DNA of 64,000 nucleotides from an uncultured Candidatus Saccharibacteria bacterium (GTDB taxonomy: Bacteria; Patescibacteriota; Saccharimonadia; Saccharimonadales; UBA10212): assembly GCA_964460855.1 (NCBI GenBank), contig CAYWQH010000009.1, positions 1,351-65,350 of the forward strand, written 5' to 3'. The notes under the pieces are model-generated. The model did no database searches and was not told where the DNA came from. It saw only the letters and a list, made by a program, of their open reading frames with translations. Made by a program: the position numbers and the translations under genes. Numbering within the stretch: position 1 is the stretch's first letter; every line of letters starts with the position of its first letter. Positions 18,362 through 56,825 of this stretch are shown here, one piece after another.

Positions 18362-18494
18362 GCGAATCCGCGGGAGCGGATGAGTCGAAGGGCCCTTACT
18401 GCTGCGTTAGCGATCCAAGAAAAAATACTGGTGGGTCGAAATCCCTCCCTGCCGGAAGGCGACGCGTCGAAGGGCCCGAACTGCCGCGTCAGCG
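18362..18494. repeat. two tandem degenerate repeat units containing tRNA 3'-end-like fragments
   Basis: 29-nt cores at 18384-18412 and 18466-18494 (GTCGAAGGGCCC..ACTGCnGCGTnAGCG) match at 25/29. The segment GGGTCGAAATCCCTCCCTGCC at 18430-18455 resembles the tRNA-Ser T-arm/acceptor 3' end. Confidence 0.6.
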
Positions 18495-39326: not shown

Positions 39327-40601
39327 ATGAAGTGGCCAAAAAGACTTTTCATTAGTATTTGCATTACTTTCCTATTGATATGTTGCGGCGTAATGCTGCT
39401 ATTTAATTTGTCGGTTACTGGCTGGAAAGCTTTAACCGTACAAACTGGCAGCATGCGCCCGATTATTCCTAAGGGATCTTTGGTATTGATGCACCGAGTC
39501 CCCGAAAAAACTTTAAAAATCGGGGATGTAATCACCTATGCCAACCCAAGAAAATTGAATACGACTATTACACACAGGGTAATAAATAAATATGAAAAAC
39601 AAAATGTAACTTACTACGTAACTAAGGGCGATGCTAATTCTACTGCAGATCAACCGATTACTTCAGGACTTGTTAGAGGGCAGGCGGTTTATCATATGCC
39701 ATATATTGGCGGTTTTCTAAATTGGTCCAAAAAACCAATTGGCTTAATGTCTATGATTTATATTCCAGCATTAATAATAATGATTACCGAAACAATAAAA
39801 CTTGCTCAATATTACAAGAAAAAACAACCGTATCGTTTACGCAGGGCAACAGTCATTAGTAAGGCAGAAAATAACATTGCATTACCAATGACATTATTTA
39901 CTATTTCATTTATTTTAGTTTTCTCGTTTACTGGTGCTACTGTCAAGGCTTTACTACATAGCAATACTGTAGCTTTAGCAAATAATCATATTACTTCTGA
40001 GTCAGCTAATAATTCTGGGATATTGTTCAATAAAGTTATTTTCAGGTGTTCAGACGATAACACGCCAACCGCCAGTAAGCGCCCACTGATAGAAATAAAC
40101 AACCCGACCAAGCAGGATGTAAACATCACCGGCTGGCAAATTAAGGATAACAACGGGGTGATTGTTACATTTTCTAGTTCAACTATTATCCATAAACATA
40201 AAAAGCTGCAAGTCACGCCGCTGCTGAGTAACGGATTGCAGTATGCCGGTGACCGTTTGGGTTTGTATAACACCCAAAATGTACTCGTCGACGGGCTAAG
40301 CTGGGGCAGCGACCATACTTACCTCAACCCGGCGATTACTGGAGTTGGAGCCGGCACCCGCCTCAAACGCGTTCCGCCCAAAAAAGATACCGACACTAAA
40401 AACGATTGGAACGTTACCGGCCATAAGTGCGCAAAAGATGACGACGGCCACGGGCACCACGACGACGGCGACCACGAGAGTGACGGCGACCGGGACGGAG
40501 ATAAAGGCGACCAAGACGAGCACTGCTTCGACAGCCGCGACGAAACCGACCGCGTCCACGTTACGGGCATGTACCACTTCTTAGAATTAAACGAAGACTA
40601 A
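39327..40601 (+). CDS. signal peptidase I, SipW/archaeal type, fused to a lamin-tail-like domain and an Asp/His-rich tail
   Basis: 'TGSMRP', 'ITHRV' and 'TKGDAN' peptidase motifs. An LTD-like segment 'INNPTKQDVNITGWQIKDNNG...GDRLGLYN...VDGLSWG'. A C-terminal 'DDDGHGHHDDGDHESDGDRDGDKGDQDEH' tail in GC-rich DNA. Confidence 0.7.
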   Translation: MKWPKRLFISICITFLLICCGVMLLFNLSVTGWKALTVQTGSMRPIIPKGSLVLMHRVPEKTLKIGDVITYANPRKLNTTITHRVINKYEKQNVTYYVTKGDANSTADQPITSGLVRGQAVYHMPYIGGFLNWSKKPIGLMSMIYIPALIIMITETIKLAQYYKKKQPYRLRRATVISKAENNIALPMTLFTISFILVFSFTGATVKALLHSNTVALANNHITSESANNSGILFNKVIFRCSDDNTPTASKRPLIEINNPTKQDVNITGWQIKDNNGVIVTFSSSTIIHKHKKLQVTPLLSNGLQYAGDRLGLYNTQNVLVDGLSWGSDHTYLNPAITGVGAGTRLKRVPPKKDTDTKNDWNVTGHKCAKDDDGHGHHDDGDHESDGDRDGDKGDQDEHCFDSRDETDRVHVTGMYHFLELNED

Positions 40602-40721: not shown

Positions 40722-41381
40722 CTACAGGCCGAAGTTGCGGTGGAAGTTCTCGTACGCCGACAGCGGCGCCGGCTCCCGCTCGGGCTCCGGCTCGCTCTCC
40801 AGCTCCGGCTCGCTCTCCAGTTCGAAGATCGAGTCGAGGGTGTCGACGTAGAAGTCCTGCATCCGATGGTGGTTGGCCCGGATCAGCGGTTCCAGAGCCA
40901 GACGGATGCCGTACCAGTCGCTCGAGTCGTACCTCCTGATGAAGTTGAGGTGGTACGGCACGTCGAGATCGTCGACGACGCCCAGCGTCCGGCGCAGCGC
41001 CTCATCGAGGAGGCGCTTCTCGGACAGGAAGGTGCCGCGGTTGTTAGTGATCCGCAGCACGAGGGCGTCCAGCGCCGGTATGTCGCCGGCGACATCGGTG
41101 CAGACGACGAACGGCACGCGCTCGACCTTGTACACCGGGTTGCAGGCATGCCGGAACTCGGTCTCGAAGATGTCAGCCAGGTCGCTGGCCGAGTAGTAGC
41201 CGGCAGCGCGGGCCATCCACATGAACTCCTCGCGGCCGGGTTGGCCGGCCACGGAGGGCCAGTTGAACGCGATGGCCAGGATGGGCAGGTCGTTGTCGCC
41301 ACTGGCATCACGCACGGTGAGCCAGCAGCCAACGACTTGAACGATGCCGGACGCGATATCATCGCTGAAATCAGACATCAT
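40722..41381 (-). CDS. hypothetical protein, GC-rich cassette (acidic ELESEPE repeat tail)
   Basis: High GC3 in this frame. Tandem ATG ATG directly after GAAGGAGG (either 41381 or 41378 could be the start). C-terminal 'ELESEPELESEPEPEREP'. Confidence 0.65.
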   Translation of the reverse strand: MMSDFSDDIASGIVQVVGCWLTVRDASGDNDLPILAIAFNWPSVAGQPGREEFMWMARAAGYYSASDLADIFETEFRHACNPVYKVERVPFVVCTDVAGDIPALDALVLRITNNRGTFLSEKRLLDEALRRTLGVVDDLDVPYHLNFIRRYDSSDWYGIRLALEPLIRANHHRMQDFYVDTLDSIFELESEPELESEPEPEREPAPLSAYENFHRNFGL

Positions 41382-41452
41382 CCTCCTTCGGGTAGTGGGT
41401 TTACACCCGGTCAAACTGCGTTGCCGCAGCCTAACCGCGACAATCTAAGATT

Positions 41453-41481
41453 ATTATATAATAATTAGCAAACTTAAGCAA
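41453..41481 (-). promoter_or_regulatory. promoter TTGCTT-17 nt-TATAAT for the 40722-41381 cassette
   Basis: Minus strand: -35 at 41481-41476 and -10 at 41458-41453. Confidence 0.6.
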
Positions 41482-41567
41482 TTAGTTTAAATAGATAATT
41501 GCTAATCACAAAGCTCAAAAAGTTTAAGCATTATGATTAGTGTTTGACAGAGTATGTGTCGGGCGCG

Positions 41568-41615: not shown

Positions 41616-42071
41616 CTACTCTTGTTCCATGTCGATGTCATACCTGGTGAAGAATTCTCTGAACTCATCCACCAGGGCCCAGCGCCGATCTAGCCCTTCC
41701 TTGTAGCCGACGATCTCGCTTTCGACCATCGCGATCAGCATGAGCTCGGCCGCGTCCTTGTCGGTATGGTCATCGAGCGGGCCAGTCGATGCGTACAGTT
41801 CGGCCGGAAATATGAGCTTCACGTCAGCCAGCAGGATACTGGCCAGTTTCTTTTCGAGTTTATTGTACATCTCGAATGTCATCCGGTAGGGCCGGCCGGT
41901 ACGGTGTTCCACTCCCCAGTGGAACATTTGCCGGCAGGCCTCTTCTACGGCCTTTTCGGAGTCGTAGACCCGGGGTACCAGGTACTCCGGGTGGTGGAAC
42001 CGCTGGGCGAATAGCTGCTTGGCGATGTCCACTATCTGCCGGGCGAGCGTACCTTCGAAACTGCTTTCCAT
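41616..42071 (-). CDS. hypothetical protein, GC-rich cassette
   Basis: 151-aa ORF with a GC3-biased frame. No family recognised. Confidence 0.6.
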   Translation of the reverse strand: MESSFEGTLARQIVDIAKQLFAQRFHHPEYLVPRVYDSEKAVEEACRQMFHWGVEHRTGRPYRMTFEMYNKLEKKLASILLADVKLIFPAELYASTGPLDDHTDKDAAELMLIAMVESEIVGYKEGLDRRWALVDEFREFFTRYDIDMEQE

Positions 42072-42145
42072 GGCATCTCATTTCTCGAATGAAGGGTTAC
42101 TCTGTCAAACTGCGAATCCGCAGTCAGACAGCGGAAATCGACAAT

Positions 42146-42174
42146 ATTATAAAATAATTAATAGATATAAGCAA
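42146..42174 (-). promoter_or_regulatory. promoter TTGCTT-17 nt-TATAAT for the 41616-42071 cassette
   Basis: Minus strand: -35 at 42174-42169 and -10 at 42151-42146. Paralogous to 41453-41481. Confidence 0.6.
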
Positions 42175-42182
42175 TAAGTATA

Positions 42183-42914: not shown

Positions 42915-43039
42915 ATATTAATTATAGCCAGGCAGGGAATTTAAGCTTAAATATATTGTAAAATAGGGCTAATAATGATATAATATGAGTTCAATGCGGA
43001 AATCGGTCCGCATGTACCTGTAGTAAGGAGGTGAGTATC

Positions 43040-43918
43040 TTGCGTGTCCCGACCGACGGGTGGCTGAATGGTGGCTGGAACAACAAGCGCCAGCAGTTCT
43101 ACCTACTGGGCGAGACGGTGGGCCTCGAGCCTAACCCGTCTCCGGAACAGTTGCAGGATACGCTTCGCCGGGTTAGCTCGGCGAAGGTCTTCGCGGAGTC
43201 CATCGCGGACTTCGTGGAGGCGACTGGTATGACCACCAAGCAGGTGGCAGACCGTCTGAAGACGGTCAACCACCAGCTGGGGGTCATGGATCCGCTGCCG
43301 TTCATGTCGCTCAAGGGTCACTGCGACCCGAAGAGCTTCCGCGGCACGGCCATCTGGCCCGCCGGTACGGTTGCCTGGATGCAGCTCCGCTGGGAGCAGA
43401 TCCAGCTGGCCGAGCTGGCCGGCGCGACTTTCGAGCGCGTCATCGTGCTCGGAAGTTCGCGCCAGTGCAACGCTCCGGCCGACCGCCGGCATCCCTACGT
43501 CAACGGGGTCTTCCCCGAGGGCAAGGAGCCGACCGAGCTCGAGCTCATGAAGCAGTGGGTGTTCGCATCCGGCCGAAACACCGGCCAGTATTTGTTCCCC
43601 GAGCTGGACGAGCACAACGAGCAGGGCAAACCGCTCTCGCTGGAGCAGATGCTCCGGCAGTACGGCGAGCGGTACGAGCCCTTCGCGCCTGACTCCCAGG
43701 TGTACGTTCCGGCCAACCCGAACGCATTGTACGTGCCACTGCACGTGCGCCGTGTACTCGGCCTGGACGATGTCTGGCTCAGCCAGGGCGGAGCCCGTCT
43801 GTACAGCGAGATGCCGCCGTACTGGTGGCCCAGCTGCCAGGACCTGATGACGACGCCTTCGGGCATCTTCAGGCTCTGGATCGAGCTGATCCGCAACGGC
43901 TGCATCAACAGCCGGTAA
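43040..43918 (+). CDS. hypothetical protein, GC-rich cassette
   Basis: GC3-biased frame. A TTG at 43040 lies 8 nt after AAGGAGG; the longest ORF begins at a GTG at 43031, abutting the SD. Confidence 0.6.
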   Translation: MRVPTDGWLNGGWNNKRQQFYLLGETVGLEPNPSPEQLQDTLRRVSSAKVFAESIADFVEATGMTTKQVADRLKTVNHQLGVMDPLPFMSLKGHCDPKSFRGTAIWPAGTVAWMQLRWEQIQLAELAGATFERVIVLGSSRQCNAPADRRHPYVNGVFPEGKEPTELELMKQWVFASGRNTGQYLFPELDEHNEQGKPLSLEQMLRQYGERYEPFAPDSQVYVPANPNALYVPLHVRRVLGLDDVWLSQGGARLYSEMPPYWWPSCQDLMTTPSGIFRLWIELIRNGCINSR

Positions 43919-44024: not shown

Positions 44025-46667
44025 ATGGCAGAGCGTAAAAAATTAGCTATCATTGACGGTAAGAGTGTATTTTACCGGGGTTATTACGCCATGCCCAATT
44101 TGAGCACAAAAGATGGTACGCCCACCGGCGGAGTACACGGCTTCGCGGCCATGGCGCTGGAGCTTGTTAAGCGGCTCAAGCCGGATTACGTGTGCGTGGC
44201 CTGGGACAAGCCCAAAACCAATATCCGCAAGCGCCTGGCGCTGTACGCCGACTATAAAGCCGGCCGCAAACCGGCGCCGCCCGATTTTTACGCCCAGATC
44301 CCGATTCTGCATGAACTGTTAGAAGCCTTCCACTGGCCGCTGTACGAACTGGATGATTACGAAGCCGACGACATTATGGGTACGCTGGCTTGCGCCGCCG
44401 CCAAAAAAGACATCGAAACCATGCTGATTACATCCGATTTGGACGTGCTGCAGCTGGTGGACCCGCACATCCACGTTTACGCCCTCAAGCGCGGTTTTAC
44501 GGATATAGATATCTTTAAACCGGAAAGCTTCGAACAAAAATACGGCATCAAAACCACCCAGTTTTTGGATTTAAAAGCACTGAAAGGCGACAGTTCCGAT
44601 AATATCCCTGGCGTGCCCGGCATTGGTGAAAAAACTGCCCTGGATTTGCTCAAACAATATAATGATCTCGATAACATCTACGATAACCTCGATTTAATTA
44701 AAAATAGTGTGCAGGCCAAGCTCAAAGCCGGCAAAGATCTGGCTTATTTAAGCCGCGAGCTGGCCGAAATCTGGACCGACGCGCCAATTGAGCTGAACCT
44801 CAGCGAAATGGACGGCAGCAAAATGGACACCGCCCATTTGCAGAATATTTTGCAGCGGCTGGAGTTCCGCAGTTTGTTGAGGCAACTGCCCGAAAATATG
44901 CGCTCCGAAACTCCTACCAACGACTTAGTAGGCGGGGTAGAACTGACACTACCAAAATTAACCATGGTCGAATCAGACAAAGTGTTAAACGCCTTGGACT
45001 TTAGCCAGGCCAAACAGCTATATATCCATTCGCGCTCGGCCGGCAAGCACGGCCGCGAGCCGCTGGTTTTAATGATTGGTACCGGCGAACACGCCTACGT
45101 TTTAAATATCAAAAAAATTAGTTCAGCGGCCATCCGCGACAAGCTAAGCCCGATATTCGAAAACAAAGAAATTGGCAAAATCGGCTACGAGATCAAAAAC
45201 GACATTAAATTTTTAAAGAGCATGGGTATTGGCTTTGAATGCGTTGAGCACGACGTATTGGTTGGCGCTTTCTTGATAAACCCCTTGGGCCGCATCCGAA
45301 CCATAACCGAGCTGGCCAGCGACACGATCAGTTTCGAAGGCGCGGCTTTTGAAGATTTGCCTACCGAAGACTTTATGGCCCGGGCGCCGGAATTTATAGC
45401 GGTCATTAAAGAGCTGTATAACCAACAATTGGTTACCTTAAAAGATATGCCTAAAGTGCTTCAGCTGGCTAAAGATATCGAATGGCCGGTTATACCGGTA
45501 CTGGCCGGTATGGAATACGAGGGCATCAAACTCGACGTGCCTTATTTACATAAATTTGCCAAGCAATTAGACGACGCCATATCAGATGTTGAACAAAAAA
45601 TTTACGGCCATGCCGACCAGGAATTTAATATCAGCTCGCCTAGCCAATTAGCCGATGTGCTGTTTACCAAGCTGCTGCTGCCGACGCAGAACATCAAGAA
45701 GTTAAAAACCGGCTATAGCACTGCCGCCAGCGAACTGGATAAGCTGCGCGGCATCCACCCGGTCATCGACCTGATTACCCAATACCGAGAAGTTACCAAG
45801 CTAAAAAACACTTATGTAGATACTTTGCCTAACCAGGTAGACGATAACAGCCGGGTGCACACTACTTTTAACATGACCATGGCCCAAACCGGCCGGCTAA
45901 GCAGCATCGACCCTAATTTGCAGAACATTCCGGTACGTACCGAGCTTGGTAAAAAAATCCGCACGGCTTTTGTAGCCGATAAAGGCAACGTTTTGGTCAG
46001 CGCCGACTATAGCCAGCAGGAGTTGAGAATCGCGGCGGTGATTGCCGGCGACAAAGGCATGCTCGAAGCGTTTAACCGCGACGAAGACATCCATATATTA
46101 ACGGCCGCAGCCGTGCGGGGCATTAAGCCCGAAGAAGTTACTAAAGATATGCGCTACCAGGCCAAGGCCGTTAACTTTGGCATTTTGTACGGGCAGGGGC
46201 CGCACGCCCTGGCGCTGCAAACCGGCCTGACTTTTGCCGAAGCGAAGGAGTTTATCGATAAGTATTTTGAAGTCCGTCCGAAGCTGCGCGAATATATCGA
46301 CGAAACCCGCAAAAAAGCCGTAGAAGTCGGTTATGTCGAAACCATTATGGGCCGCCGCCGGCCGACGCCGGACGCCCACAGCAGTAACTTTGTTGTCCGC
46401 GAAGCAGCCTTGCGCGCCGCCGTTAATATGCCTATCCAAGGTACAGCCGCCGACCTGAGCAAACTGGCAATGATAGAAGTGAATAAAAAAATGGGCGATA
46501 AATGCACAATGTTATTACAAATCCACGACAGCATTTTGGTTGAGTGTCCGGAAAAAGAAGCCGACTCAGTTAGTAAAATGCTGCAAGAAACCATGGAAGG
46601 CGTTTACGAACTGCCAGTAAAGCTCAAAGTTGATATTTCTATCGGCAAAAACTGGGGCGAGCTTTGA
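44025..46667 (+). CDS. polA: DNA polymerase I
   Basis: 880 aa with a 5'-nuclease N-terminal domain, a 3'-5' exo-like middle domain and pol motifs 'DYSQQELR', 'KAVNFGILYG' and 'QIHDS'. Confidence 0.95.
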   Translation: MAERKKLAIIDGKSVFYRGYYAMPNLSTKDGTPTGGVHGFAAMALELVKRLKPDYVCVAWDKPKTNIRKRLALYADYKAGRKPAPPDFYAQIPILHELLEAFHWPLYELDDYEADDIMGTLACAAAKKDIETMLITSDLDVLQLVDPHIHVYALKRGFTDIDIFKPESFEQKYGIKTTQFLDLKALKGDSSDNIPGVPGIGEKTALDLLKQYNDLDNIYDNLDLIKNSVQAKLKAGKDLAYLSRELAEIWTDAPIELNLSEMDGSKMDTAHLQNILQRLEFRSLLRQLPENMRSETPTNDLVGGVELTLPKLTMVESDKVLNALDFSQAKQLYIHSRSAGKHGREPLVLMIGTGEHAYVLNIKKISSAAIRDKLSPIFENKEIGKIGYEIKNDIKFLKSMGIGFECVEHDVLVGAFLINPLGRIRTITELASDTISFEGAAFEDLPTEDFMARAPEFIAVIKELYNQQLVTLKDMPKVLQLAKDIEWPVIPVLAGMEYEGIKLDVPYLHKFAKQLDDAISDVEQKIYGHADQEFNISSPSQLADVLFTKLLLPTQNIKKLKTGYSTAASELDKLRGIHPVIDLITQYREVTKLKNTYVDTLPNQVDDNSRVHTTFNMTMAQTGRLSSIDPNLQNIPVRTELGKKIRTAFVADKGNVLVSADYSQQELRIAAVIAGDKGMLEAFNRDEDIHILTAAAVRGIKPEEVTKDMRYQAKAVNFGILYGQGPHALALQTGLTFAEAKEFIDKYFEVRPKLREYIDETRKKAVEVGYVETIMGRRRPTPDAHSSNFVVREAALRAAVNMPIQGTAADLSKLAMIEVNKKMGDKCTMLLQIHDSILVECPEKEADSVSKMLQETMEGVYELPVKLKVDISIGKNWGEL

Positions 46668-47224
46668 CCGAATTATTTGATATCGTAGACCAAAACGACC
46701 AACCAACAGGTAAAACTACAGATAAGGTGGCTGCTCATCGGGACGGTATATTACATCGGGTTGCTGCAATATTAGTTTTTACGGACAGTGGTGAGTTACT
46801 GATTCAAGAACACAAATCTCACGGCAGGTTATGGGACCATTCGGTAGGGGGCCATGTGCAGGCAGGTGAATCATATTCTGCAGCAGCCAAGAGGGAATTG
46901 GACGAAGAGTTGGGGTTGGATTTGCCGTTAGAAGAGATTAAAACCGGAGTTCCAACTTTAAATATTGATCCGCGGCCGCAGTATAAAAACGGAAAACATT
47001 TTTATGGGGTTTATACGTGCAGCGTACCCAGCGATTGGGTGCATAAAGAAACGGAAGAAGTAGACCGGTTAATAGCTATGCCGGTCGCCGAAGTAGTTAA
47101 AATAATGAATTCTGAACCGGAAAAGTTTTTGAACGGTTTTTTTATTACGCTTAGCACTTACTTAAACAGTATTAACTCGGATCTAAAAATTAAAGCCTTT
47201 GGCCAGAACTGGGGCGAACTTTAA
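46664..47224 (+). CDS. NUDIX hydrolase (lower-GC insertion)
   Basis: NUDIX box 'GGHVQAGESYSAAAKRELDEELGL'. The TTG start overlaps the polA stop. The C-terminus GQNWGEL copies the polA C-terminus GKNWGEL. Confidence 0.8.
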   Translation: MTELFDIVDQNDQPTGKTTDKVAAHRDGILHRVAAILVFTDSGELLIQEHKSHGRLWDHSVGGHVQAGESYSAAAKRELDEELGLDLPLEEIKTGVPTLNIDPRPQYKNGKHFYGVYTCSVPSDWVHKETEEVDRLIAMPVAEVVKIMNSEPEKFLNGFFITLSTYLNSINSDLKIKAFGQNWGEL

Positions 47225-47664
47225 TGCTTGGGAATAAAAAGGACTCATATTATGTAGCGTTTAAATTGTTGCTGCGGAATGGTGACAAGTTGCTGATTAC
47301 CCATGATATTTTTGGCGCCTGGGATATTCCCGGCGGCCGGATCCGGCAGGATGAATTCGACAAGCCCATCGAACAAGTTATTGAGCGCAAAATGAAAGAA
47401 GAGCTGGGCGGCGATGTTAAGTACGAAGTTGGCCCGCCGGTAACTTTCTTTAGGGTAGAGCGGGCCGAACATGACCAGGGCGGGGAGTTGGTACGGATTT
47501 TCGCGGTGGGCTACGACGCCAAATTCCTGGGCGGTAAAGTTAAACTGGGCAAGCACCATGACCAAATGGAATGGGTAGATGTAAAAACTTTCCAGCCAGA
47601 AAAGTATTTTACCGGCGGCTGGCTAACCGGCATCCAAGAATATTTAGCCAAAGTCCGCGGCTAA
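47224..47664 (+). CDS. NUDIX hydrolase
   Basis: 'PGGRIRQDE...IERKMKEELGG' NUDIX-like box. The start overlaps the previous stop (TAATG). Confidence 0.7.
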   Translation: MLGNKKDSYYVAFKLLLRNGDKLLITHDIFGAWDIPGGRIRQDEFDKPIEQVIERKMKEELGGDVKYEVGPPVTFFRVERAEHDQGGELVRIFAVGYDAKFLGGKVKLGKHHDQMEWVDVKTFQPEKYFTGGWLTGIQEYLAKVRG

Positions 47665-47729
47665 TTTTTTAACCTTTTTTACTGTAAAATAAACTTAAGC
47701 ATTTAATCTTAACCAGCTAAAGGAAGCTA

Positions 47730-49469
47730 ATGGTGGGCATGAGCCTGAAATCGGTATACTCGCTGCCGGTCAAGATTATTCTTGGGCGCAAAATTGATGA
47801 TTTGTCCGATGCTTTATATAAACGGCTGCGCTTTTTGTGCGTCATTTACGCCGTAGGCTTCGCGTTTACGCTTTTGCTGTTGTCGATAGATACGGCCAAG
47901 CGTTTTCCGGTTGGCATGCTGCTGGACTTTACCATTTTAGCCGGCATCGTGGTTATTTGCATTAAGCTGCGCTCGGCTAAAACCTACCGCTGGGCTTTTC
48001 ATGCCACGGTGGCCGTGCTGGCGGCCGTCATACAGTTTACTTATTTCTTGGCGATCGGCACGCCGCAGGCACTGCTGTTGATGCCGATGGTGTTAATCCT
48101 GGCATATTTTTTGCTGGGCCAGCGCTCCGGCTTGCTTTGGAGCATCGCCGTAATATGCGGCAATATCGCGGCTTTGGCTATCGGCCAGCTGGGTTGGGCC
48201 TATTTACCGATAACCACCCACGTAATGGTTTATTCGATTATGAACTTGGCCGTAATTTCGGCGTTTTTGTACGTGTACGAAGGGGTAAACAAAGATAATG
48301 AAGAACGGATAGCCGTCCGCGACCGCAAACTCAAAACACTTAATGGCCAGCTGGCTGACGAAAAAGCCCATGTCGAGCACCTGGTAGAAGTCCGCACCCA
48401 CCAGCTGCACGAAGAAGAGGCCCGCCTGCAGGCTTCAATTATGGCCCTGGAGCTGGGCTTTATTATGGTGCTGCGCGACTGGAGCGTGGCCCGTTATAAC
48501 CCGGCATTGCTGCATATCGTGGACGGCCTAGTGGAGAACTCCAACGTATCGCTGGTTTGGCAGCTTATAGAAAAAGTCCACCGCTCGTACCATCTCGATA
48601 AGGCTATCGAGAAATGCCTCAAAAACGGCAAGTCGTTTTCGAAAACCGACATCCCGGTTGGCGACAAGTTCGTGCGGATTATCGGCTCGGCTATCCATAA
48701 CGGCCATAGTGGTAAGGTTATCGGCGTGGTGCTGCTGGTAGAGGATATGACCGAAGAAAAAATGCTGGAGCGCCGAGAGGACGAGTTCGTATCGATCGCC
48801 TCGCACGAGCTGCGCACGCCGCTGACAGTTATAGAAGGCAACTTATCGATTATCGAGGACGAATTCGGCAGCGAAATAAAAGACGAGGCGCTTAAACATA
48901 TGCTGGGCAACGTTAAAGACTCATCCGGCCGGCTGATCCAAATCGTTAACCAGTTCTTAAACATGACCCGCCTGGAGCAAAATAAAACCGTGTTTAACCT
49001 CACCAGGGCGGACATAAATTCGATTGTACGGCAGGTAGCTTCGGAGCTGGGGCCGATTGCCCATAAGAAAGGCCTGGAAGTAAAAATGGAGCTGGCTACC
49101 GAAAACGTCTGCGTAACGGCCGACGTCCGGCGGCTGCAGGAAATCGTATCGAATATGTTCGATAACGCCATCAAATACACCGATAAAGGCAGCATCATAT
49201 TGCGCACGGTGCACACCGGTAACGATGTTATTTTCCAGGTCGAAGATACGGGCAAGGGCATCGAGCCTAAAAACCAAAAGCACCTGTTTTATAAATTCCA
49301 CCAAGCGACGAATAATATTCTGACGCGCGACGACAGCCGCAGCACCGGCCTTGGCTTATACATATCCCGCTTGCTGGCCGAGCAAATGGGCGGCCGGGTG
49401 GAACTGACCCGTTCGGTGCCGGGCAAAGGCTCTTTGTTTACGCTGACACTGCGCAAGTACGAAAAATAA
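47730..49469 (+). CDS. sensor histidine kinase (membrane, PAS-like, HisKA/HATPase_c); no adjacent response regulator
   Basis: About 6 TM helices, H-box 'SHELRTPL', N-box 'DNAIKYT', G1 'EDTGKGI' and G2 'GLGLYISR'. Confidence 0.88.
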   Translation: MVGMSLKSVYSLPVKIILGRKIDDLSDALYKRLRFLCVIYAVGFAFTLLLLSIDTAKRFPVGMLLDFTILAGIVVICIKLRSAKTYRWAFHATVAVLAAVIQFTYFLAIGTPQALLLMPMVLILAYFLLGQRSGLLWSIAVICGNIAALAIGQLGWAYLPITTHVMVYSIMNLAVISAFLYVYEGVNKDNEERIAVRDRKLKTLNGQLADEKAHVEHLVEVRTHQLHEEEARLQASIMALELGFIMVLRDWSVARYNPALLHIVDGLVENSNVSLVWQLIEKVHRSYHLDKAIEKCLKNGKSFSKTDIPVGDKFVRIIGSAIHNGHSGKVIGVVLLVEDMTEEKMLERREDEFVSIASHELRTPLTVIEGNLSIIEDEFGSEIKDEALKHMLGNVKDSSGRLIQIVNQFLNMTRLEQNKTVFNLTRADINSIVRQVASELGPIAHKKGLEVKMELATENVCVTADVRRLQEIVSNMFDNAIKYTDKGSIILRTVHTGNDVIFQVEDTGKGIEPKNQKHLFYKFHQATNNILTRDDSRSTGLGLYISRLLAEQMGGRVELTRSVPGKGSLFTLTLRKYEK

Positions 49470-49472
49470 TAA

Positions 49473-49527
49473 GTGATAATCACGGGGCTCCCCGCACGGA
49501 TCCGAAGATCCGCGCGGGGAATACCCC
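49473..49527. repeat. 55-nt GC-rich palindromic repeat, copy A
   Basis: GTGATAATCACGGGGCTCCCCGCACGGATC-cgaa-GATCCGCGCGGGGAATACCCC. It pairs with copy B at 50072-50127. Confidence 0.85.
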
Positions 49528-49556
49528 TTCTGCCTATTGTCCGGGCCGGGTCCGCG

Positions 49557-50015
49557 CTAGGCGGCGCGCCGGAAATCGATTTCCGGCAGCTCGTCCTCGA
49601 GACTGAGCTGGCCGCTCCGGCGGTTCGGATGCCGCAGGGTCGGATGTTCGACCACCTGGGCTTCGCGCTGCCGTTGGGCCGTGTTGCGCAGCAGCCGGAG
49701 GACTTCGGCCTTGCCGTACGTGTCGCTCCATGCCATCAGGATGGCGAGGAGTTCGACGCCGCCTTTGGCCAGCGTGGTGAAGTACTTGTCGCGCCTACGG
49801 CGCAGCTCGTCAGCCAGCGCCTCCGCCAGGTCGGCCGGGATGATATCGTCGACGTTGTCGTCGTTGACCTCGTCGTAGCCGAGGGCCTGGCCGATGGCCG
49901 TCAGCTGGCAGCCACCGAGGCCGCAGTTGCCGGTGCCCCAGCCGCGCCGCCAGCCGTAGATCTCGATGTTGTAGGCCGCTCGGCATAACACATCCGCGTA
50001 CACTGGACCTCCCAT
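49557..50015 (-). CDS. hypothetical protein, GC-rich cassette
   Basis: 152 aa with a GC3-biased frame. The start is the ATG at 50015, or the GTG at 50003 if GGGAGG serves as the SD. Confidence 0.6.
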   Translation of the reverse strand: MGGPVYADVLCRAAYNIEIYGWRRGWGTGNCGLGGCQLTAIGQALGYDEVNDDNVDDIIPADLAEALADELRRRRDKYFTTLAKGGVELLAILMAWSDTYGKAEVLRLLRNTAQRQREAQVVEHPTLRHPNRRSGQLSLEDELPEIDFRRAA

Positions 50016-50071
50016 TTCGGGGATTTGCAGAATAAGCTTAAAGTAACCTAATTTATAATTTTTAGCAATTC

Positions 50072-50127
50072 GTGATAATCGCGGGGCACCCCGCGCGGAC
50101 CTTGTGAGTCCGCGCGGGGAAGGCCCC
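50072..50127. repeat. 56-nt GC-rich palindromic repeat, copy B
   Basis: GTGATAATCGCGGGGCACCCCGCGCGGAC-cttgtga-GTCCGCGCGGGGAAGGCCCC, with a perfect 12-bp stem. Confidence 0.85.
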
Positions 50128-50135
50128 GGGTGCCG

Positions 50136-50255
50136 TCAGAAGATTAGTGAGACCAGCTTGGCGAACATCCAGCCACCTACCACGTAGGCGGGCGAAAGAA
50201 AGATGAGCGCCCACAGAATCTGCTGCCACGGCTCGAGCTGCTTGTCCTGCTTCAT
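50136..50255 (-). CDS. 39-aa single-TM micro-protein
   Basis: ATG preceded by GGAAGGAGGTGATCC, a near-perfect anti-16S-tail SD. Sequence 'MKQDKQLEPWQQILWALIFLSPAYVVGGWMFAKLVSLIF'. Confidence 0.55.
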   Translation of the reverse strand: MKQDKQLEPWQQILWALIFLSPAYVVGGWMFAKLVSLIF

Positions 50256-50278
50256 GCGCGGATCACCTCCTTCCATTG

Positions 50279-50476
50279 TCAGGGTGAGGTAGTGGTCGTG
50301 CCGGGCTGCGGGTGTATGAAGCCTTGGTGTCCGGCGCCGGGGATCGGCCAGCCATTGCGTAGTGCCAGGATCCCATAGGTGATGTATAGGACCATAAACA
50401 CTATGAGCGCAACGATTGCCCATCTGTTAACGCGCTCCCCTTCGTAATGCTCTTCTGGGTCGATCTGTTCCGGCAT
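50279..50476 (-). CDS. 65-aa single-TM micro-protein
   Basis: ATG 5 nt after GAGGAGG. A TGGTATAAT promoter lies just upstream. It corresponds to the last 65 codons of the 231-aa track ORF. Confidence 0.55.
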   Translation of the reverse strand: MPEQIDPEEHYEGERVNRWAIVALIVFMVLYITYGILALRNGWPIPGAGHQGFIHPQPGTTTTSP

Positions 50477-50541
50477 GCTAACCTCCTCGGTTCGCCGACA
50501 GATAACAGTAATATTATACCATAAACATAATAAATTAACAA

Positions 50542-51843
50542 TCAATCTTCGCCGTTTTGGTAGAGGTCGATGAGGTCTTTGACCGAGCCGAAAGCGATGC
50601 GGTCGAGGATGAAATTGTCCATGTTGACCACCAGCGCCGAAGCGACGGTTAAGTCTCCGTAAGTGTCGTTTATTTCGTCGAGGGCCCGGGCCAGGGCGTG
50701 GCTGTCCAGCCGGGTGCCGTCGTCGAGGCTGAGCTGCAGCGGCTCGTACGGCACCAGGTCGTAAACGGTAATGGCCAGGTGGGCGACCACTTTGGCTGCC
50801 GGCTGTTGGTCTAGGAGACGCGTGGCATGGACATAGATATCCTGCGTCGTGAACAGCCGGCCGCCAATGCGTTCGCCGTGGTGCCACATGGTGCGGTCGT
50901 CGTAAATGCAGCTGACGTGGATGGCTTCGGCGAAGAACCCGTGGCGGCGCAGCCGCCGGCCGGTTTTTTCGCACAGCTTCATCATCAGCCGGTTGAGGTG
51001 GTCGCGGTCGGCGGTTTTTTGGCCGAGCGCGTAAGTGTGGCCGATGCTGCGGCGCTTGAAGTCGACGCCGTCGATCTCCCAGCCCCGCAGCCGTAAATAC
51101 CAGTAGTAGCCATTGATTGATTCGAACACGATCTTTTTAAGCACGTGCATCGGGGCATTAAAGAACTCTAGGGGCGTGGTGATTCCGGCCCGGTAAAGTC
51201 GTCGTCGATTTCGAATATTAATGCCGCAAATATCGAGTAGGTCCATGTGTTGGTATACATCTTGTAAATTCTCCTTGGTTATTACATCTAAGCCGTCGGG
51301 CTTGTGCAGGCCGGCGGCCGTTTTTGCTAAAAAGCGGTTGGTGCCGAGGCCGACATTTACGGTAACGTAACTGCCGACTTCGTCGCGCACCCGCCGCTTA
51401 ATTTCTTTGCCTATTTCAATTAGCGACCGCTCGTCTTTGATGGCCGCGTCGTTAAAGTCGATGATCATTTCGTCGATCGATTTGGGTGTGACCCGGCTGG
51501 TGTAGCTTTCGAATATCCGCTTAAAGCGGATGTGGGCGTCGCGGTACTTGGGCGGGTCGGGCGGCAGCACTATCATATCGGGGCAGAGCTTGAGGCCGTC
51601 CATCACCCGCATGCCGGTTTTAACGCCGCAGCGCTTGGCTTCGTAGCTGGGCGCCAATATGCAGCCGCGGGGGCTAACGTAGGCCGCCACGGCCACCGGC
51701 TTGCCGCGCAGCAGGGGGTTGGCCTGCTGCTCCATGATGGCGAAGCAGCTGTTCATATCGATGTGCATTACCAGCGGCCGGGCGGTGTTAACCGGCATTT
51801 CGATGAAACCCAGCGGGTAGTTAGGCTTCAAACTGTTGGCCAC
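50542..51843 (-). CDS. dinB: Y-family DNA polymerase (DinB/UmuC-like)
   Basis: 'MHIDMNSCFAIMEQ', 'SIDEMIIDF' and little-finger domain length. The GTG start overlaps the upstream stop by 1 nt. Confidence 0.85.
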   Translation of the reverse strand: MANSLKPNYPLGFIEMPVNTARPLVMHIDMNSCFAIMEQQANPLLRGKPVAVAAYVSPRGCILAPSYEAKRCGVKTGMRVMDGLKLCPDMIVLPPDPPKYRDAHIRFKRIFESYTSRVTPKSIDEMIIDFNDAAIKDERSLIEIGKEIKRRVRDEVGSYVTVNVGLGTNRFLAKTAAGLHKPDGLDVITKENLQDVYQHMDLLDICGINIRNRRRLYRAGITTPLEFFNAPMHVLKKIVFESINGYYWYLRLRGWEIDGVDFKRRSIGHTYALGQKTADRDHLNRLMMKLCEKTGRRLRRHGFFAEAIHVSCIYDDRTMWHHGERIGGRLFTTQDIYVHATRLLDQQPAAKVVAHLAITVYDLVPYEPLQLSLDDGTRLDSHALARALDEINDTYGDLTVASALVVNMDNFILDRIAFGSVKDLIDLYQNGED

Positions 51844-52118
51844 TAGTTAACCTCACTACTGCCCAATTTTCCGAGCAGCCACGTTAAATCTTCAGTATTG
51901 AACTTGAGCTCGAAAAAGTGGACGCCGTCGGTGGCCGAAAAAACGTGGATGGTGGCCCGGCCCTGCTTGTATTTATGGTGGTAGCCCAGCTCTTTAATTA
52001 CGTACTCCCGGCCGTGCCATTCCAGCCGGAAGGGGGACAGGTCTTTGTAGGTATCTTTGGGGAAGCGGGCTATCACCGCAACCCTCTCATTAATCGTTTC
52101 ATACATTGGTTTCTCCAA
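51843..52118 (-). CDS. small protein translationally coupled to the Y-family polymerase (possible accessory factor)
   Basis: 91 aa. The stop TAG overlaps the dinB GTG (TAGTG). Confidence 0.5.
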   Translation of the reverse strand: MEKPMYETINERVAVIARFPKDTYKDLSPFRLEWHGREYVIKELGYHHKYKQGRATIHVFSATDGVHFFELKFNTEDLTWLLGKLGSSEVN

Positions 52119-52180
52119 TTGAAGTTTTAGTTGTTAATTTTTTGCTTTATAGGTTCGCTAAATTCATTCACAATATAGGT

Positions 52181-52867
52181 ATGTGCGGAAGATACACCTT
52201 ACATGCCCAGGCCGAGGAAATTGCCGAACGGTTCGGCGTGGACGATATTCTGCAGGGTTACCGCGAGAACTATAACGTCGCTCCCGGGCAAATCATGCCG
52301 GTGATTACCGAAGACGAATCGGGCCATAGGCATTTGGAGCTGATGAAGTGGGGCCTGATACCGTTTTGGGCCAAAGACCCTAAAATCGGTTACAAGCTCA
52401 TCAACGCCCGCGACGATACGATCTTCGACAAGCCGATGTGGCGCAACGTGGTGTTAAAGAAACGGGCTTTGATACCGGCCGACGGGTTTTACGAATGGAA
52501 GAAGCCGGAAGACCCCAAAGGCCGCAAACAGCCTTTTTATATTCATCCCAAACGAGAAAACTTGTTTGCCTTTGCCGGGGTTTGGGAAACCTGGAAAGAC
52601 GTTGAAGGCAAAGAGATTAAAACCTATTCGATTATTACGACCGACCCTAATAAAGAGATGCGGGGCGTGCATAACCGTATGCCTGTGATATTGGACCAAA
52701 AAGACGAAGCTTCGTGGTTGGAGCCGTCGCACACCAGCCGGGAAGACGTTGAGCCTTTCCTGCACCCGTATGACGATAATGGCTTGGATATGTTTGAGGT
52801 CAGCAGTGACGTGAATGTTACCCGGAATAACGAGGAAAAACTCATTTATCCGCTTAACTCCCAGTGA
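52181..52867 (+). CDS. SOS response-associated peptidase (SRAP/YedK family)
   Basis: It begins 'MCGRYTL' with the catalytic Cys2, and has 'NARDDT' and 'FYEW'. The longest track ORF (from 52106) adds 25 implausible residues. Confidence 0.85.
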   Translation: MCGRYTLHAQAEEIAERFGVDDILQGYRENYNVAPGQIMPVITEDESGHRHLELMKWGLIPFWAKDPKIGYKLINARDDTIFDKPMWRNVVLKKRALIPADGFYEWKKPEDPKGRKQPFYIHPKRENLFAFAGVWETWKDVEGKEIKTYSIITTDPNKEMRGVHNRMPVILDQKDEASWLEPSHTSREDVEPFLHPYDDNGLDMFEVSSDVNVTRNNEEKLIYPLNSQ

Positions 52868-53032
52868 GTTTGCAAACCTTGGTTGTGATAAAAGCCTGGA
52901 GGTAGGAATCCGCCCTAAGGCAAAAGCACTTCCATAGCGTAAGAACCATTATTCATCCAAGCGGCTAGCCGCGTCAAGCAGTTAATTAACATTTGGCTCT
53001 TATTTAAGGTATATGCTAAATAAGGAGTAGCT

Positions 53033-53902
53033 ATGGCGACAAATCCCGAACAATTGCAAAACCAGGGCGATGCCTTAAGAGATAAAGGCTTAGGCGACGA
53101 TGCCGCCCTGAGGTATGCGGATGCCGCCCGGCAGTTCGAACAAGCGGGAGACTTATTAAGCGCTGCATCCAGCTGGCACATGGCCGGTGTCAGTATGAAG
53201 CACGACCAGGCCAAAGCCATGGAGCTTTTTAAAGCGGCTATCACTTTTTACGAAGAAGCAGGCGATGAAGTGGGGGTAGGGCGGGTGTACCGCGACCAGG
53301 CCGTTACTTATGCCTACCGGGCCGAGCATGAAGAAGCATTAAAACTTTTAGAAGAAAGCCGGGAAGTTTTAGCTAAAACCAAAGCTAAAGACGAATTAGG
53401 TATTACTATCGCCAAAATCGGCAACGTCTTAACCCATCAGGGCGAATACGACGAAGCCGCCGCCAAACTTTACGAAGGCCTGGCGCTCATTAAACAGCAG
53501 CCTAACGCTTTTTATGAGGGCACCGCCTATATGCATTTAGCCCAGTTGCGCCTGCGCCAAAAAGAATTTAAGTCGGCCCTGGTATATTCCCATACTGCCG
53601 CTAAAACCCTCGCGCGGCAAAACCCGGAAATGGATTTTAACCAGGCCATGGATTATTTTGGGCGGCGTTCGGCCCAAATTTACGGCATTATGGCCCAAAG
53701 CTACCTTGGTTTAGGTAATACCAAGCTAGCCGGAGATTATTTTGTAAAAAGCCTCGACTATATAAAGCCGTTGGCCGCCGATGCCGCCGAAGTTTTATTA
53801 CAAGATATCGGTGCCGGGGATTTTGTGGAGTCAATCAAATCGTCAGACCCGAATTTAAATAGGAAATTAGCCAAACACCCGGTTTTTAAACGCCTGCGGT
53901 AA
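53033..53902 (+). CDS. tetratricopeptide repeat protein
   Basis: Repeated about 34-aa A/Y/L-patterned helical pairs throughout the 289 aa. Confidence 0.65.
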   Translation: MATNPEQLQNQGDALRDKGLGDDAALRYADAARQFEQAGDLLSAASSWHMAGVSMKHDQAKAMELFKAAITFYEEAGDEVGVGRVYRDQAVTYAYRAEHEEALKLLEESREVLAKTKAKDELGITIAKIGNVLTHQGEYDEAAAKLYEGLALIKQQPNAFYEGTAYMHLAQLRLRQKEFKSALVYSHTAAKTLARQNPEMDFNQAMDYFGRRSAQIYGIMAQSYLGLGNTKLAGDYFVKSLDYIKPLAADAAEVLLQDIGAGDFVESIKSSDPNLNRKLAKHPVFKRLR

Positions 53903-53924
53903 CCAGCCGATGTAAAATAGAAGT

Positions 53925-54551
53925 ATGTGGAGAGACAGGGTGGAGGCCGGCCGGGAGCTGGCCCAGAAGCTGAAAATCTACCGCGACAGCCACGCGGTAG
54001 TGTACGCTTTGCCGCGCGGCGGGGTAGTAGTGGGCGCCGAGGTGGCCCGCGAACTTGGCGTGCCGCTGGATTTGGTTATCGCCCGTAAAATCGGCCACCC
54101 GAGCCATGCCGAATACGCCATTGCCGCCGTCACCGAAACCGGCCAGCCGGTGGTTAACGAATTCGAGTTGTTACAAGTAAGCGAAGAATGGTTCGACCGC
54201 GAATTGGACCGCCAGCGGACCGAAGCCAAACGCCGCCGCGAAAAATACTTTGGCGACTTGCCGCATACAAAAGCCACCCACCGGACGGCCATTATTATCG
54301 ACGACGGCATCGCCACCGGCCTAACTCTTAAAGCCGCCATTGTACGCATCAAAGACGAAAACCCGGCCAAAATTGTCGTAGCCGTACCGGTTACGCCGGA
54401 TGATACGGCGGCCGAGCTAGAGAAGCTGGTAGACGAATTCGTATGCCTGCACCGCGAGCAGGGCTTTTTTGGCGCCGTCGGCAGTTATTACCGCTATTTC
54501 GACCAAACGGCTGACGACGAAGTGGTCAATTTGCTGCACGAGCTCGAATAA
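53925..54551 (+). CDS. phosphoribosyltransferase family protein
   Basis: 'VVYALPRGGVVVGAEVA' and the PRPP loop 'AIIIDDGIATGLT'. Confidence 0.75.
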   Translation: MWRDRVEAGRELAQKLKIYRDSHAVVYALPRGGVVVGAEVARELGVPLDLVIARKIGHPSHAEYAIAAVTETGQPVVNEFELLQVSEEWFDRELDRQRTEAKRRREKYFGDLPHTKATHRTAIIIDDGIATGLTLKAAIVRIKDENPAKIVVAVPVTPDDTAAELEKLVDEFVCLHREQGFFGAVGSYYRYFDQTADDEVVNLLHELE

Positions 54552-54580
54552 TCGCCGTACTTTAGTGGCATAATAGCAAT

Positions 54581-55159
54581 ATGACCATATCGATAAAGGC
54601 CATAATTTTTGATTTCTTTGGCGTAATTTGCTCGGACGAATACTGGAATTTTGTCAGCGTCGATAAAAATTACAGCTCCGAATTCCATAAACTGGCCGAC
54701 GAAGTCAATTTGGGTAAACTCGGTTGGCAGGAATTTTTGACGGACGTTGCCGAAATGACCGGCCAGACTTACCGGCAGGTGGAAAGGCTATATAAGCAGG
54801 AAAAAATCAACCCGGAATTTATCGGCTACATCCAGCAACTTCACAAACGCTACAAAACGGCACTGCTTACCAACGCCCACTATGAATTTTTGGAACCGTT
54901 AGCAGAAAAAGCCCATTTAAATACGGTGTTCGACGAAATTATTATGTCTTCGCGGGTGGGCGCTACCAAACCCTCGCCTCAAATTTACCAATATGCTTTA
55001 GATAAGCTCGGGCTGCAGCCCCACGAAGTAATTTTTGTCGATGACCTTAAAGTTAATACCGACGCCGCCGAAAAGCTGGGAATAAAATCTATCCTTTATG
55101 AATCTTTCGAACAGTGTAAATTCGAACTGCGCCAACTGCTAGCTGATACGGATAATTAA
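54581..55159 (+). CDS. HAD family hydrolase
   Basis: Motif I 'IIFDFFGVI', motif II 'LLTNA', motif III/IV 'K...FVDD'. Confidence 0.75.
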   Translation: MTISIKAIIFDFFGVICSDEYWNFVSVDKNYSSEFHKLADEVNLGKLGWQEFLTDVAEMTGQTYRQVERLYKQEKINPEFIGYIQQLHKRYKTALLTNAHYEFLEPLAEKAHLNTVFDEIIMSSRVGATKPSPQIYQYALDKLGLQPHEVIFVDDLKVNTDAAEKLGIKSILYESFEQCKFELRQLLADTDN

Positions 55160-55375
55160 AGGCTTAGTCAGCTTGCAGGCTTCGACTAAGCGGTTTTTTT
55201 CCATTTGGATGGAGCTGGCTAAAGAAGAGTTAGAAACAATAAGCATAATATTGCCGTTACTATGCTGTACGCGGCATTTGCTTTTATAGCGCCGCAACAC
55301 ATAGTCTTTAATCATTTCAATTTCGGTGGGCGGCGTAAAATCGCGGCTGCCCAGAATGTGTTGCAAGCTTTCCAT
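55139..55375 (-). CDS. small DUF721/DciA-like protein (tentative)
   Basis: 78 aa. The pattern 'IMLIVSNSSLASSIQMEKNRL' resembles the DciA family. The assignment is weak. Confidence 0.35.
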   Translation of the reverse strand: MESLQHILGSRDFTPPTEIEMIKDYVLRRYKSKCRVQHSNGNIMLIVSNSSLASSIQMEKNRLVEACKLTKPLIIRIS

Positions 55376-55429
55376 GTTTAAAGTATAACGAAAATACCAA
55401 ATAGAAGTGAGTTGCCGGAAGGAGATAAT

Positions 55430-55927
55430 TTGGGATCACCCGAAAATTTACAATTTGACGAGCCTTCTGAACCGCTGCCGGAAGAATTTTTAACCATTAA
55501 CTGGCCGCCGGTAGGAGACTGGGAACTTTCCGGCGAATTAACTTATGCGTCCGTTAATTTGGGTACGGTAGAAGTAGAGTTATTGCACGACGAAGAACTG
55601 ATGGACGCCGCTTTTGAATTTAATATTGAATATCTAAACAGCGTTTGGCCGGCCACCACGTTTCGCTACTATATAGAGAGCTATTCGGAACTTTTCCCCA
55701 AACTTAAAGCCATTCGGTTTTCCACTACGCAATCGCTGGCGGCTATTAGTTTTATAAAAGCGGCCGTACCGGAAGGTTGGCAGCGCCGGATGGCACTTTA
55801 CGACTTAAAAGACGAACTTAACCCGGGATTATTACTGGCTTGTGACGTTACCGACCCCGAAGTAATAGATAGTTGTGTCATTCTAGACGCCGTTGCGTCT
55901 GCCATTGTAAGCCGCGATAATCAGTAA
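55430..55927 (+). CDS. acidic hypothetical protein
   Basis: A TTG at 55430 lies 5 nt after GGAAGGAG; the longest ORF starts at 55412. Confidence 0.5.
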   Translation: MGSPENLQFDEPSEPLPEEFLTINWPPVGDWELSGELTYASVNLGTVEVELLHDEELMDAAFEFNIEYLNSVWPATTFRYYIESYSELFPKLKAIRFSTTQSLAAISFIKAAVPEGWQRRMALYDLKDELNPGLLLACDVTDPEVIDSCVILDAVASAIVSRDNQ

Positions 55928-55949
55928 CCAATAAGGATATAATTACTTT

Positions 55950-56825
55950 ATGCCCGAACTGCCCGAGGTAGAAACGGTTAAGCGCGGCCTGAGCAAGCTG
56001 TTGCCGGGTTTAGCTATTGCCGACGTCCACCACGACTGGGCCAAGTCTTTTCCTAACGCGCCTCATGATGTGATGCGGTTTATGATTAAGGCCAAAGTTT
56101 TAAGCGTACGGCGGCGGGCCAAAGTATTAATTATCGATTTAAGTACCAAACACAGTTTAATTATCCACCTTAAAATGACCGGCCAGCTGGTGTTTGTGGG
56201 CCAGGAGCGGTTCGGCGCCGGCCATCCCAGCGATTCTTTGGTAAATAAACTGCCTGATAAATCTACCCGCGTCACCATCGATTTTAAAGACGGCAGCAAG
56301 CTGTTTTTTAACGACCAGCGTAAGTTCGGCTGGATGCGTTTGATACCGACTATCGAAATACCGGAAATCGACTTTTTCAAAAAAGTCGGCCCCGAGCCGC
56401 TAGACGATAACTTTAGCGTTACGGCTTTTTCAAAGCAGTTAATGCGACGCCAAAACAGCGGTATTAAAGCGGTGCTTTTAGACCAGACAGTGATAGCCGG
56501 CGTCGGCAATATTTATGCCGATGAATCGCTGTGGATGGCCAAAATCCATCCTGAAACACTCGTAAAAAACATTCCTAAAAGTAAAATCGTGGCTTTGTTT
56601 AGCGACCTTCGAGAAGTATTACTACTTAGTATTAAAAAAGGCGGCAGCTCCGACCGTAATTACGTAAATGCCGAGGGCAAAAAGGGCAGCTATATAAGTT
56701 TCGCCAAAGTATTCCGGCGTGAAGGCCAGCCTTGCCAGCGCTGCGGCAACACAATAATAAAGACACGCGTCGCCGGCAGAGGCACCCATCTTTGCCCAAT
56801 TTGCCAAAAACTCAAGAAACCTTGA
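55950..56825 (+). CDS. mutM: formamidopyrimidine-DNA glycosylase
   Basis: N-terminal 'MPELPEVETV' and a C-terminal zinc finger 'CQRCGNTI...CPICQ'. Confidence 0.92.
   Translation: MPELPEVETVKRGLSKLLPGLAIADVHHDWAKSFPNAPHDVMRFMIKAKVLSVRRRAKVLIIDLSTKHSLIIHLKMTGQLVFVGQERFGAGHPSDSLVNKLPDKSTRVTIDFKDGSKLFFNDQRKFGWMRLIPTIEIPEIDFFKKVGPEPLDDNFSVTAFSKQLMRRQNSGIKAVLLDQTVIAGVGNIYADESLWMAKIHPETLVKNIPKSKIVALFSDLREVLLLSIKKGGSSDRNYVNAEGKKGSYISFAKVFRREGQPCQRCGNTIIKTRVAGRGTHLCPICQKLKKP

Follow-up and report, generated by a model that had tools for sequence, protein, structure and literature searches.

Among the systems described so far, the locus reported here comes closest to intrinsic terminators, which include bidirectional ones, and of which hairpin-only ('I-shaped') forms have been described in Actinobacteria. 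Direct repeats and palindromes beside genes are also familiar from mobile DNA, including integron cassettes with their attC palindromes, the attL/attR sites and target-site duplications left by integration, and the repetitive extragenic palindromic (REP) sequences and bacterial interspersed mosaic elements (BIME). In this study we focus on two homologous hairpin-forming repeats, copy A and copy B, which bracket a single gene of the DUF6197 family in a stretch of 64,000 nt (the window) on contig CAYWQH010000009.1 of an uncultured Candidatus Saccharibacteria bacterium (coordinates in Table 1). The reading to which we incline is that the pair represents a locally duplicated terminator, or 3'-end module, and that two convergent genes share copy A.

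An initial annotation of this DNA had reported direct repeats at 49473-49527 and 50072-50127. These repeats are real (45 of 55-56 positions identical), and their similarity reaches further on both sides, to modules of 67 and 68 nt in which alignment over the full extent finds 52 of the 67-68 positions identical. The local alignment of the copies scores 35, as compared with at most 17 in 2000 shuffles; the copies are approximately 78% identical, with about 20% of positions differing and a longest uninterrupted identical run of 13 nt. As the similarity spans loops, bulges and flanks in addition to the stem, it argues for shared ancestry of the copies, and the earlier view that they arose by common descent and not by convergence is upheld. 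A 23-nt pattern derived from the left half finds copies A and B and no other place in the 64 kb (0 matches expected), and searches of the window with either half of the module, mismatches allowed, revealed no further copy; the 67-nt module is captured by the pattern GTGATAATCRCGGGGC..CCCCGCRCGGA. The word GTGATAATCAC in copy A, contrary to its earlier description, is itself a 5+5 palindrome. As a candidate operator or plus-strand -10 box it was rejected, being without enrichment in the window and, in copy A, without a usable -35 element before it.

Both copies fold into two nested helices, of which the outer one is formed by pairing of a G4 with a C4 run and is wrapped around the inner helix. 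The minus-strand fold of hairpin A has an energy of -42.1 kcal/mol (z -6.1) and its plus-strand fold one of -36.0 kcal/mol, which is weaker by 6 kcal/mol; hairpin B reaches -45.5 kcal/mol in a 77-nt context (z -5.3) and -42.8 kcal/mol for the module alone. In copy A, the UUCG tetraloop and two G·U pairs exist only on the minus-strand RNA, and the G·U position of the inner helix becomes an unpaired A·C in the plus-strand fold. Taken together, the UUCG loop, the minus-only G·U pairs and the weaker plus strand point to a function as minus-strand RNA. The differences between the copies lie in loops, bulges and flanks, or else are compensatory (GGATC/GATCC versus GGAC/GTCC) or exchange G-C for G·U, and folding thus agrees with the previous proposal that compensatory changes at the top of the stem have kept the hairpin. 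A second, competing palindrome, which had been assigned to each copy, did not survive this analysis: the G4 and C4 runs pair distally as the outer helix, and the presumed competitor is the junction of the nested helices, which as a local mini-hairpin yields -6 to -11 kcal/mol as compared with about -42 kcal/mol for the nested fold.

By position, both hairpins mark the 3' end of a transcription unit, and both are stable, GC-rich stem-loops. Hairpin B starts 8 nt past the stop codon of the small gene mp39, and hairpin A starts 29 nt past the stop codon of the DUF6197 gene and 15 nt past that of a convergent histidine kinase gene. In these respects they resemble intrinsic terminators, which likewise are strong GC-rich stem-loops a few to 30 nt past stop codons and may, as copy A does, stand between convergent genes. 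GC-rich hairpins also end other genes of the window, and the one after the gene at 43031-43918 has a UUCG loop followed by TTCATTTT. Unlike typical intrinsic terminators, the two described here have a stem of 19 bp in two nested helices with an energy of about -42 kcal/mol, and they are homologous to each other over 67 nt, including non-stem positions.

Several observations weigh against the reading as a duplicated terminator. A U-tract directly 3' of the stem, as found in intrinsic terminators, is absent from both hairpins, and a terminator scan flagged neither of them; past copy A, about 12 nt lie between the stem and the nearest U-rich run, and no such run follows copy B. The compensatory changes come from two sequences only and from few positions, and the two strands of copy B give folds of about equal quality. 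Furthermore, a terminator function by itself leaves the homology of neighbouring terminators unexplained, and recombination at a hairpin would give the same picture.

The inner stem is widespread. The pattern CCCCGCRCGGA-N4-12-TCCGCGCGGGG, that is, an identical 11-bp stem, occurs at at least 120 unrelated metagenome loci with a GC content ranging from 0.44 to 0.75; a T-rich tail is present at 70 of the 120 matches listed, and many are flanked on either side by A and T tracts. Judged by their sequence, these loci are ordinary intrinsic terminators, and since none of those listed shares the flanks of the module, the inner stem is a generic terminator stem which has been reached many times independently. 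In none of the 120 matches listed is the 17-nt left flank of the module present (minimum of 8 mismatches in 17), and scans of viral contigs with the flank-containing patterns GGGGCNCCCCGCRCGGA and GTGATAATCNCGGGGC gave only chance matches of seed length, none of which extended. As far as it could be tested, the 67-nt module is private to the locus. The question of whether the repeat is a common terminator found at many unrelated loci thus has a divided answer, which is affirmative for the inner stem and negative for the full module.

The same searches bear on the possibility that the copies belong to a dispersed family of small repeats, similar to REP/BIME or to miniature inverted-repeat transposable elements (MITEs), which settles after genes and of which two members have become neighbours by chance. 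A length of about 67 nt, an imperfect palindrome and an extragenic position after stop codons are indeed reminiscent of REP-type elements, and one relative carries a Y1 transposase gene beside dinB. However, only two copies exist in the 64 kb, both at this locus, no match sharing the flanks was obtained from the viral contigs or from the 120 listed metagenome matches to the inner stem, and no RAYT/Y1 transposase was detected in the window. We consider a dispersed family improbable.

The only open reading frame (ORF) between the repeats encodes a protein of 148 aa which matches the Pfam family DUF6197 (PF19698) with E 3.2e-8 and 34.3 bits (cut-off 24.6), covering profile positions 7-111 of 111. 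The previously proposed start at ATG 50015, giving 152 aa, has to be revised, as GTG 50003 is likelier: GGGAGG lies 4 nt upstream of it and a public gene call agrees, whereas the ATG is without a Shine-Dalgarno (SD) sequence. The gene has a GC content of 0.67 and a GC content at third codon positions (GC3) of 0.87, as compared with window-typical values of about 0.51 and about 0.6, and so extreme a composition occurs in just two further genes of the window; its in-frame codon score is +0.85 bits per codon. An ORF on the plus strand (49473-49988, starting from a GTG of the repeat) was rejected as a GC-rich shadow ORF, as it matches nothing in Pfam and is antisense to the Pfam-supported gene. 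Exact look-up and homology searches for relatives of the 152/148-aa protein returned only the protein itself, and no single sequence was found at E 0.001 among 1.84 billion cluster representatives, which marks this Saccharibacteria protein as a very divergent representative of DUF6197. A tblastn search against phages and plasmids gave nothing meaningful, a sequence search of the PDB gave only compositional matches to designed repeat proteins, and a single-sequence AlphaFold model is unusable (predicted local distance difference test score, pLDDT, of 41).

DUF6197 is a family of Actinobacteria and actinophages. It has been reported in a gene cluster of Streptomyces kanamyceticus, and in cluster A15 Gordonia phages it is located directly downstream of DNA polymerase I (PMC10586128). 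The protein described here shares the full Pfam domain with these, and the high GC3 of its gene is as expected for an actinobacterial origin; it differs from them in its divergence and in its occurrence in a Saccharibacteria genome. Saccharibacteria are episymbionts of Actinobacteria, which are their known hosts (PMC8406219). Acquisition of the gene from a host or from a host phage is therefore a reasonable inference, and no donor was found. The gene is separated by two small genes from the upstream gene for DNA polymerase IV and lies about 3 kb from polA (44025-46667). The adjacency to polymerase genes here and in the Gordonia phages may be a coincidence.

The bracketed gene had also been credited with a promoter of its own, for which a scan offered no support, as it detected no sigma-70-like promoter for this gene on the minus strand; the best candidate by eye, TTGCTA-17-TACTTT, agrees at about 7 of 12 positions. 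Lacking a convincing promoter, the DUF6197 gene could depend on read-through of hairpin B, and an RNA switch could be envisaged in which terminator and anti-terminator forms alternate and thereby control read-through from the dinB/micro-protein unit into the gene. The G4/C4 runs would permit local alternative pairing. This is nevertheless a very improbable explanation: the weak mini-hairpin described above is set against a nested fold which dominates the ensemble, a search of the locus against Rfam gave no credible family at E up to 10, and there is nothing downstream of copy A to regulate.

Two other assemblies cover parts of the locus and carry the window sequence, and no variant of it was found in any collection queried. 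They originate from the sibling runs SRR9179563 and SRR9179559, the only two runs in which the organism was seen. From SRR9179563, an independent Logan assembly of 9042 nt (L001) is 100% identical to window positions 47156-56197 and spans both copies. From SRR9179559, a contig of 1195 nt (L147) is identical to 51302-50110 and ends inside hairpin B, directly past the word CCGCGCGG, which is self-complementary; the two terminal bases of the contig depart from the window. Probably the assembly broke off at the palindrome, so that this end would not be a biological junction. It might also be taken as a hint that mis-assembly at a palindromic repeat created the duplication. We regard such an artefact as scarcely credible, given the identity of the independent assembly across both copies and the divergence of the copies at about 20% of positions, which is incompatible with a single sequence whose reads were collapsed or expanded.

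Relatives of the locus were compared by means of dinB, which encodes DNA polymerase IV. Within the GTDB species set, the dinB-bearing loci nearest to this one belong to metagenome-assembled genomes of Saccharibacteria and other Patescibacteria with at most 56% identity, and the best of 3393 dinB relatives in a set of 5.8 billion proteins is 62% identical. A gene encoding an SRAP (YedK-like) protein, a gene of about 86-91 aa with a weak DUF6504-like match, which overlaps the start of dinB, and dinB itself form a conserved triad (window 50542-52867), which is present in the related loci L002, L008, L015, L017 and L018 and is conserved across Saccharibacteria and other Patescibacteria. The DNA that follows dinB is different in each genome, and in two relatives it contains a gene for a Y1 transposase or a tyrosine integrase. 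The spot thus varies between genomes, which is compatible with an insertion here. A synteny search, which covered 13 GTDB loci together with three contigs from the nearest relatives by dinB, showed no similar hairpins downstream of dinB and no empty site; at 56-62% identity in dinB, the nearest genomes are too distant to show one and are not syntenic downstream.

The variable spot is one of the arguments for an alternative in which the repeats are a recombination scar: a circular or linear unit of about 600 bp, consisting of the DUF6197 gene and one hairpin module, would have entered at a terminator hairpin already present there, through site-specific or homologous (Campbell-type) recombination, and left attL/attR-like copies, which may still terminate transcription. 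A single gene of foreign composition is enclosed by direct repeats that share their ancestry, just as attL/attR sites and target-site duplications surround foreign DNA, and a second locus of the window, described below, holds unrelated ORFs inside homologous non-coding frames. On the other hand, Pfam and tblastn detected no integrase, transposase or other recombinase, either between the repeats or in the DNA up to about 10 kb away. The genes between 47.2 and 56.2 kb yielded no Phage_integrase domain, nor did those scanned from 38.8 to 44 kb, and tblastn with a Y1 transposase and a tyrosine integrase of Saccharibacteria returned nothing in the window. In addition, the divergence of about 20%, together with the longest identical run of 13 nt, implies that any recombination event would be old or that its substrates had already diverged; the inner edges of the direct repeats show no inverted terminal repeats; and neither an empty site nor a junction was seen in the two other assemblies. 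We judge such a scar to be rather unlikely. The original proposal of attL/attR-like products or of a duplicated target accordingly lacks positive evidence, and the attL/attR version, as part of the scar reading, is rather unlikely as well. Usual target-site duplications measure 2-15 bp, and the 67-nt repeat is far longer.

A comparison with integron cassettes leads to a similar outcome. The likeness lies in one small ORF of about 450 nt beside an imperfect palindrome of about 60-70 nt, in a unit of about 600 bp. In contrast to attC, whose fold has extrahelical bases, the palindrome here is a near-perfect GC stem, intI is not found nearby, and there is a single 'cassette'. The module ends, AATAAGTGATAATC and CCCCTTCTGCC / CCCCGGGTGCC, contain neither R'' (RYYYAAC) nor R' (GTTRRRY) core sites and show no mutual complementarity.

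The second locus lies at 40.6-42.2 kb and favours an ordinary local duplication. Its two adjoining genes, X1 and X2, have no detectable similarity to each other (BLASTP E 0.83), but their promoter/5'-untranslated region (5'-UTR) stem-loop modules (41405-41489 and 42099-42182) are homologous, with 73-79% identity. This frame comprises a promoter, TTGCTT-17-TATAAT, and a stem-loop in the 5'-UTR containing GTTTGAC. The GC-rich terminators of X1 and X2 are likewise homologous (76% column identity) and have a TCAAC loop in common; compensatory changes are seen in the stems of these terminators as well as in those of the 5' stem-loops. Each terminator is followed by an inverted GTTTGAC motif; around X2, the GTTTGAC... 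motif forms a perfect 13-bp inverted repeat (41542-41554 and 42098-42110). Within the window, the GTTTGACMGRRTA motif occurs only at 40.6-42.2 kb, and its viral matches are due to chance. These observations suggest that local duplication of regulatory modules around unrelated ORFs recurs in this genome, and they also keep alive the idea of gene capture into duplicated frames. In its broadest form, which we find doubtful, Saccharibacteria would add single foreign genes at terminator hairpins or 'expression frames' by recombination that duplicates the non-coding frame. It is equally doubtful that the DUF6197 unit (49.5-50.1 kb) and the unrelated ORF pair at 40.6-42.2 kb would both be products of such a process.

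The neighbourhood of the repeats consists of a minus-strand series of five genes (p91, dinB, mp65, mp39 and the DUF6197 gene), which is faced by the convergent plus-strand histidine kinase gene. For the two micro-proteins mp65 and mp39, the details given in the initial annotation could be confirmed by scan and by sequence, including the promoter, the strong SD sequences and one hydrophobic segment each. Their in-frame codon scores are +0.33 and +0.47 bits per codon, off-frame scores are negative, and in both genes GC3 exceeds the GC content at first codon positions, which in turn exceeds that at second positions, favouring the annotated frames. A concatenated mp65 and mp39 query found only mp65 itself, and neither has a family match in Pfam, PHROGs, NCBIfam or PADLOC. 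They are plausibly lineage-specific membrane micro-proteins.

Table 1. Features of the repeat locus and of the second locus (window coordinates).
Feature	Position	Strand	Details
Repeat copy A, 67-nt module	49468-49534	-	Between kinase stop (49467-49469) and DUF6197 stop (49557-49559)
Hairpin A	49484-49527	-	5-bp outer helix and 14-bp inner helix, UUCG loop, minus-strand RNA
Repeat copy B, 68-nt module	50067-50134	-	Begins 1 nt past mp39 stop codon (50136-50138)
Hairpin B	50083-50127	-	5-bp outer helix and 13-bp inner helix, 5-nt loop
DUF6197-family gene, 148 aa	49557-50003	-	GTG 50003 start (152 aa if ATG 50015)
Leader of DUF6197 gene, 63 nt	50004-50066	-	AT-rich (35% GC); SD GGGAGG at 50008-50013
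mp39, 39-aa orphan	50136-50255	-	One hydrophobic segment; SD AAGGAGGTGATCC; gene call in two public assemblies
mp65, 65-aa orphan	50279-50476	-	One transmembrane segment; SD GAGGAGG
Micro-protein operon promoter	50513-50541	-	TTGTTA-17-TGgTATAAT; 10/12 matches and TG extension; abuts dinB stop codon
Histidine kinase	47730-49469	+	Convergent on copy A; Pfam HisKA and HATPase_c
dinB (DNA polymerase IV)	50542-51843	-	Pfam IMS and IMS_C
p91	51843-52118	-	Member of the minus-strand series
X1	40722-41381	-	GC-rich orphan gene adjoining X2
X2	41616-42071	-	GC-rich orphan gene adjoining X1

Some further features of the window were observed. The genes at 7019-8383 and 43031-43918 have a GC3 of 0.91 and 0.87, AT-rich consensus-like promoters, strong SD sequences and GC-hairpin terminators, and they have no match in Pfam, PHROGs or PADLOC; the former encodes a signal-peptide-like segment at its N-terminus. 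Both may have been acquired from foreign sources as well. Past a tRNA (18230-18316) lie a 15-bp AT-rich hairpin (18316-18356) and then a 42-nt direct repeat (18371-18412 and 18453-18494, 79% identical). The 3' end (40440-40545) of a gene of 424 aa (39327-40601) encodes an acidic tail rich in Asp, His and Gly, with imperfect tandem repeats at 18-27 nt spacing.

Returning to the duplicated 3'-end module, the repeats would be paralogous copies of a long GC-rich RNA hairpin which ends or stabilises minus-strand transcripts. The unit closed by copy B would begin at the micro-protein promoter and include mp65 and mp39. Read-through transcripts from p91-dinB would probably be part of it as well, because no terminator sequence separates dinB from the micro-protein promoter. 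Copy A would close the DUF6197 unit and, as it is near-palindromic, also the convergent histidine kinase gene. The DUF6197 gene itself would be a lineage-specific, compositionally foreign addition at the variable spot downstream of dinB, and local duplication of the terminator copy may have accompanied the addition or creation of this unit, with selection having since kept both copies as hairpins. From the sequence of the locus, we infer both that the hairpins terminate or protect RNA and the manner in which the duplication arose.

If this ordinary reading is true, the locus provides a locally duplicated terminator whose fold has been kept by compensatory change, and would help to annotate 3' ends in bacteria of the Candidate Phyla Radiation (CPR), in whose genomes terminators are poorly described. 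To our knowledge, very few mobile elements are known from Saccharibacteria, which are CPR bacteria, and the locus would have a bearing on gene acquisition by reduced CPR genomes only if the recombination reading were true. The analysis also flags a compositionally foreign gene of an Actinobacteria and phage family in a Saccharibacterium. With no donor identified, the actinobacterial provenance of the DUF6197 family, together with the actinobacterial hosts of Saccharibacteria, fits gene flow from host to episymbiont.

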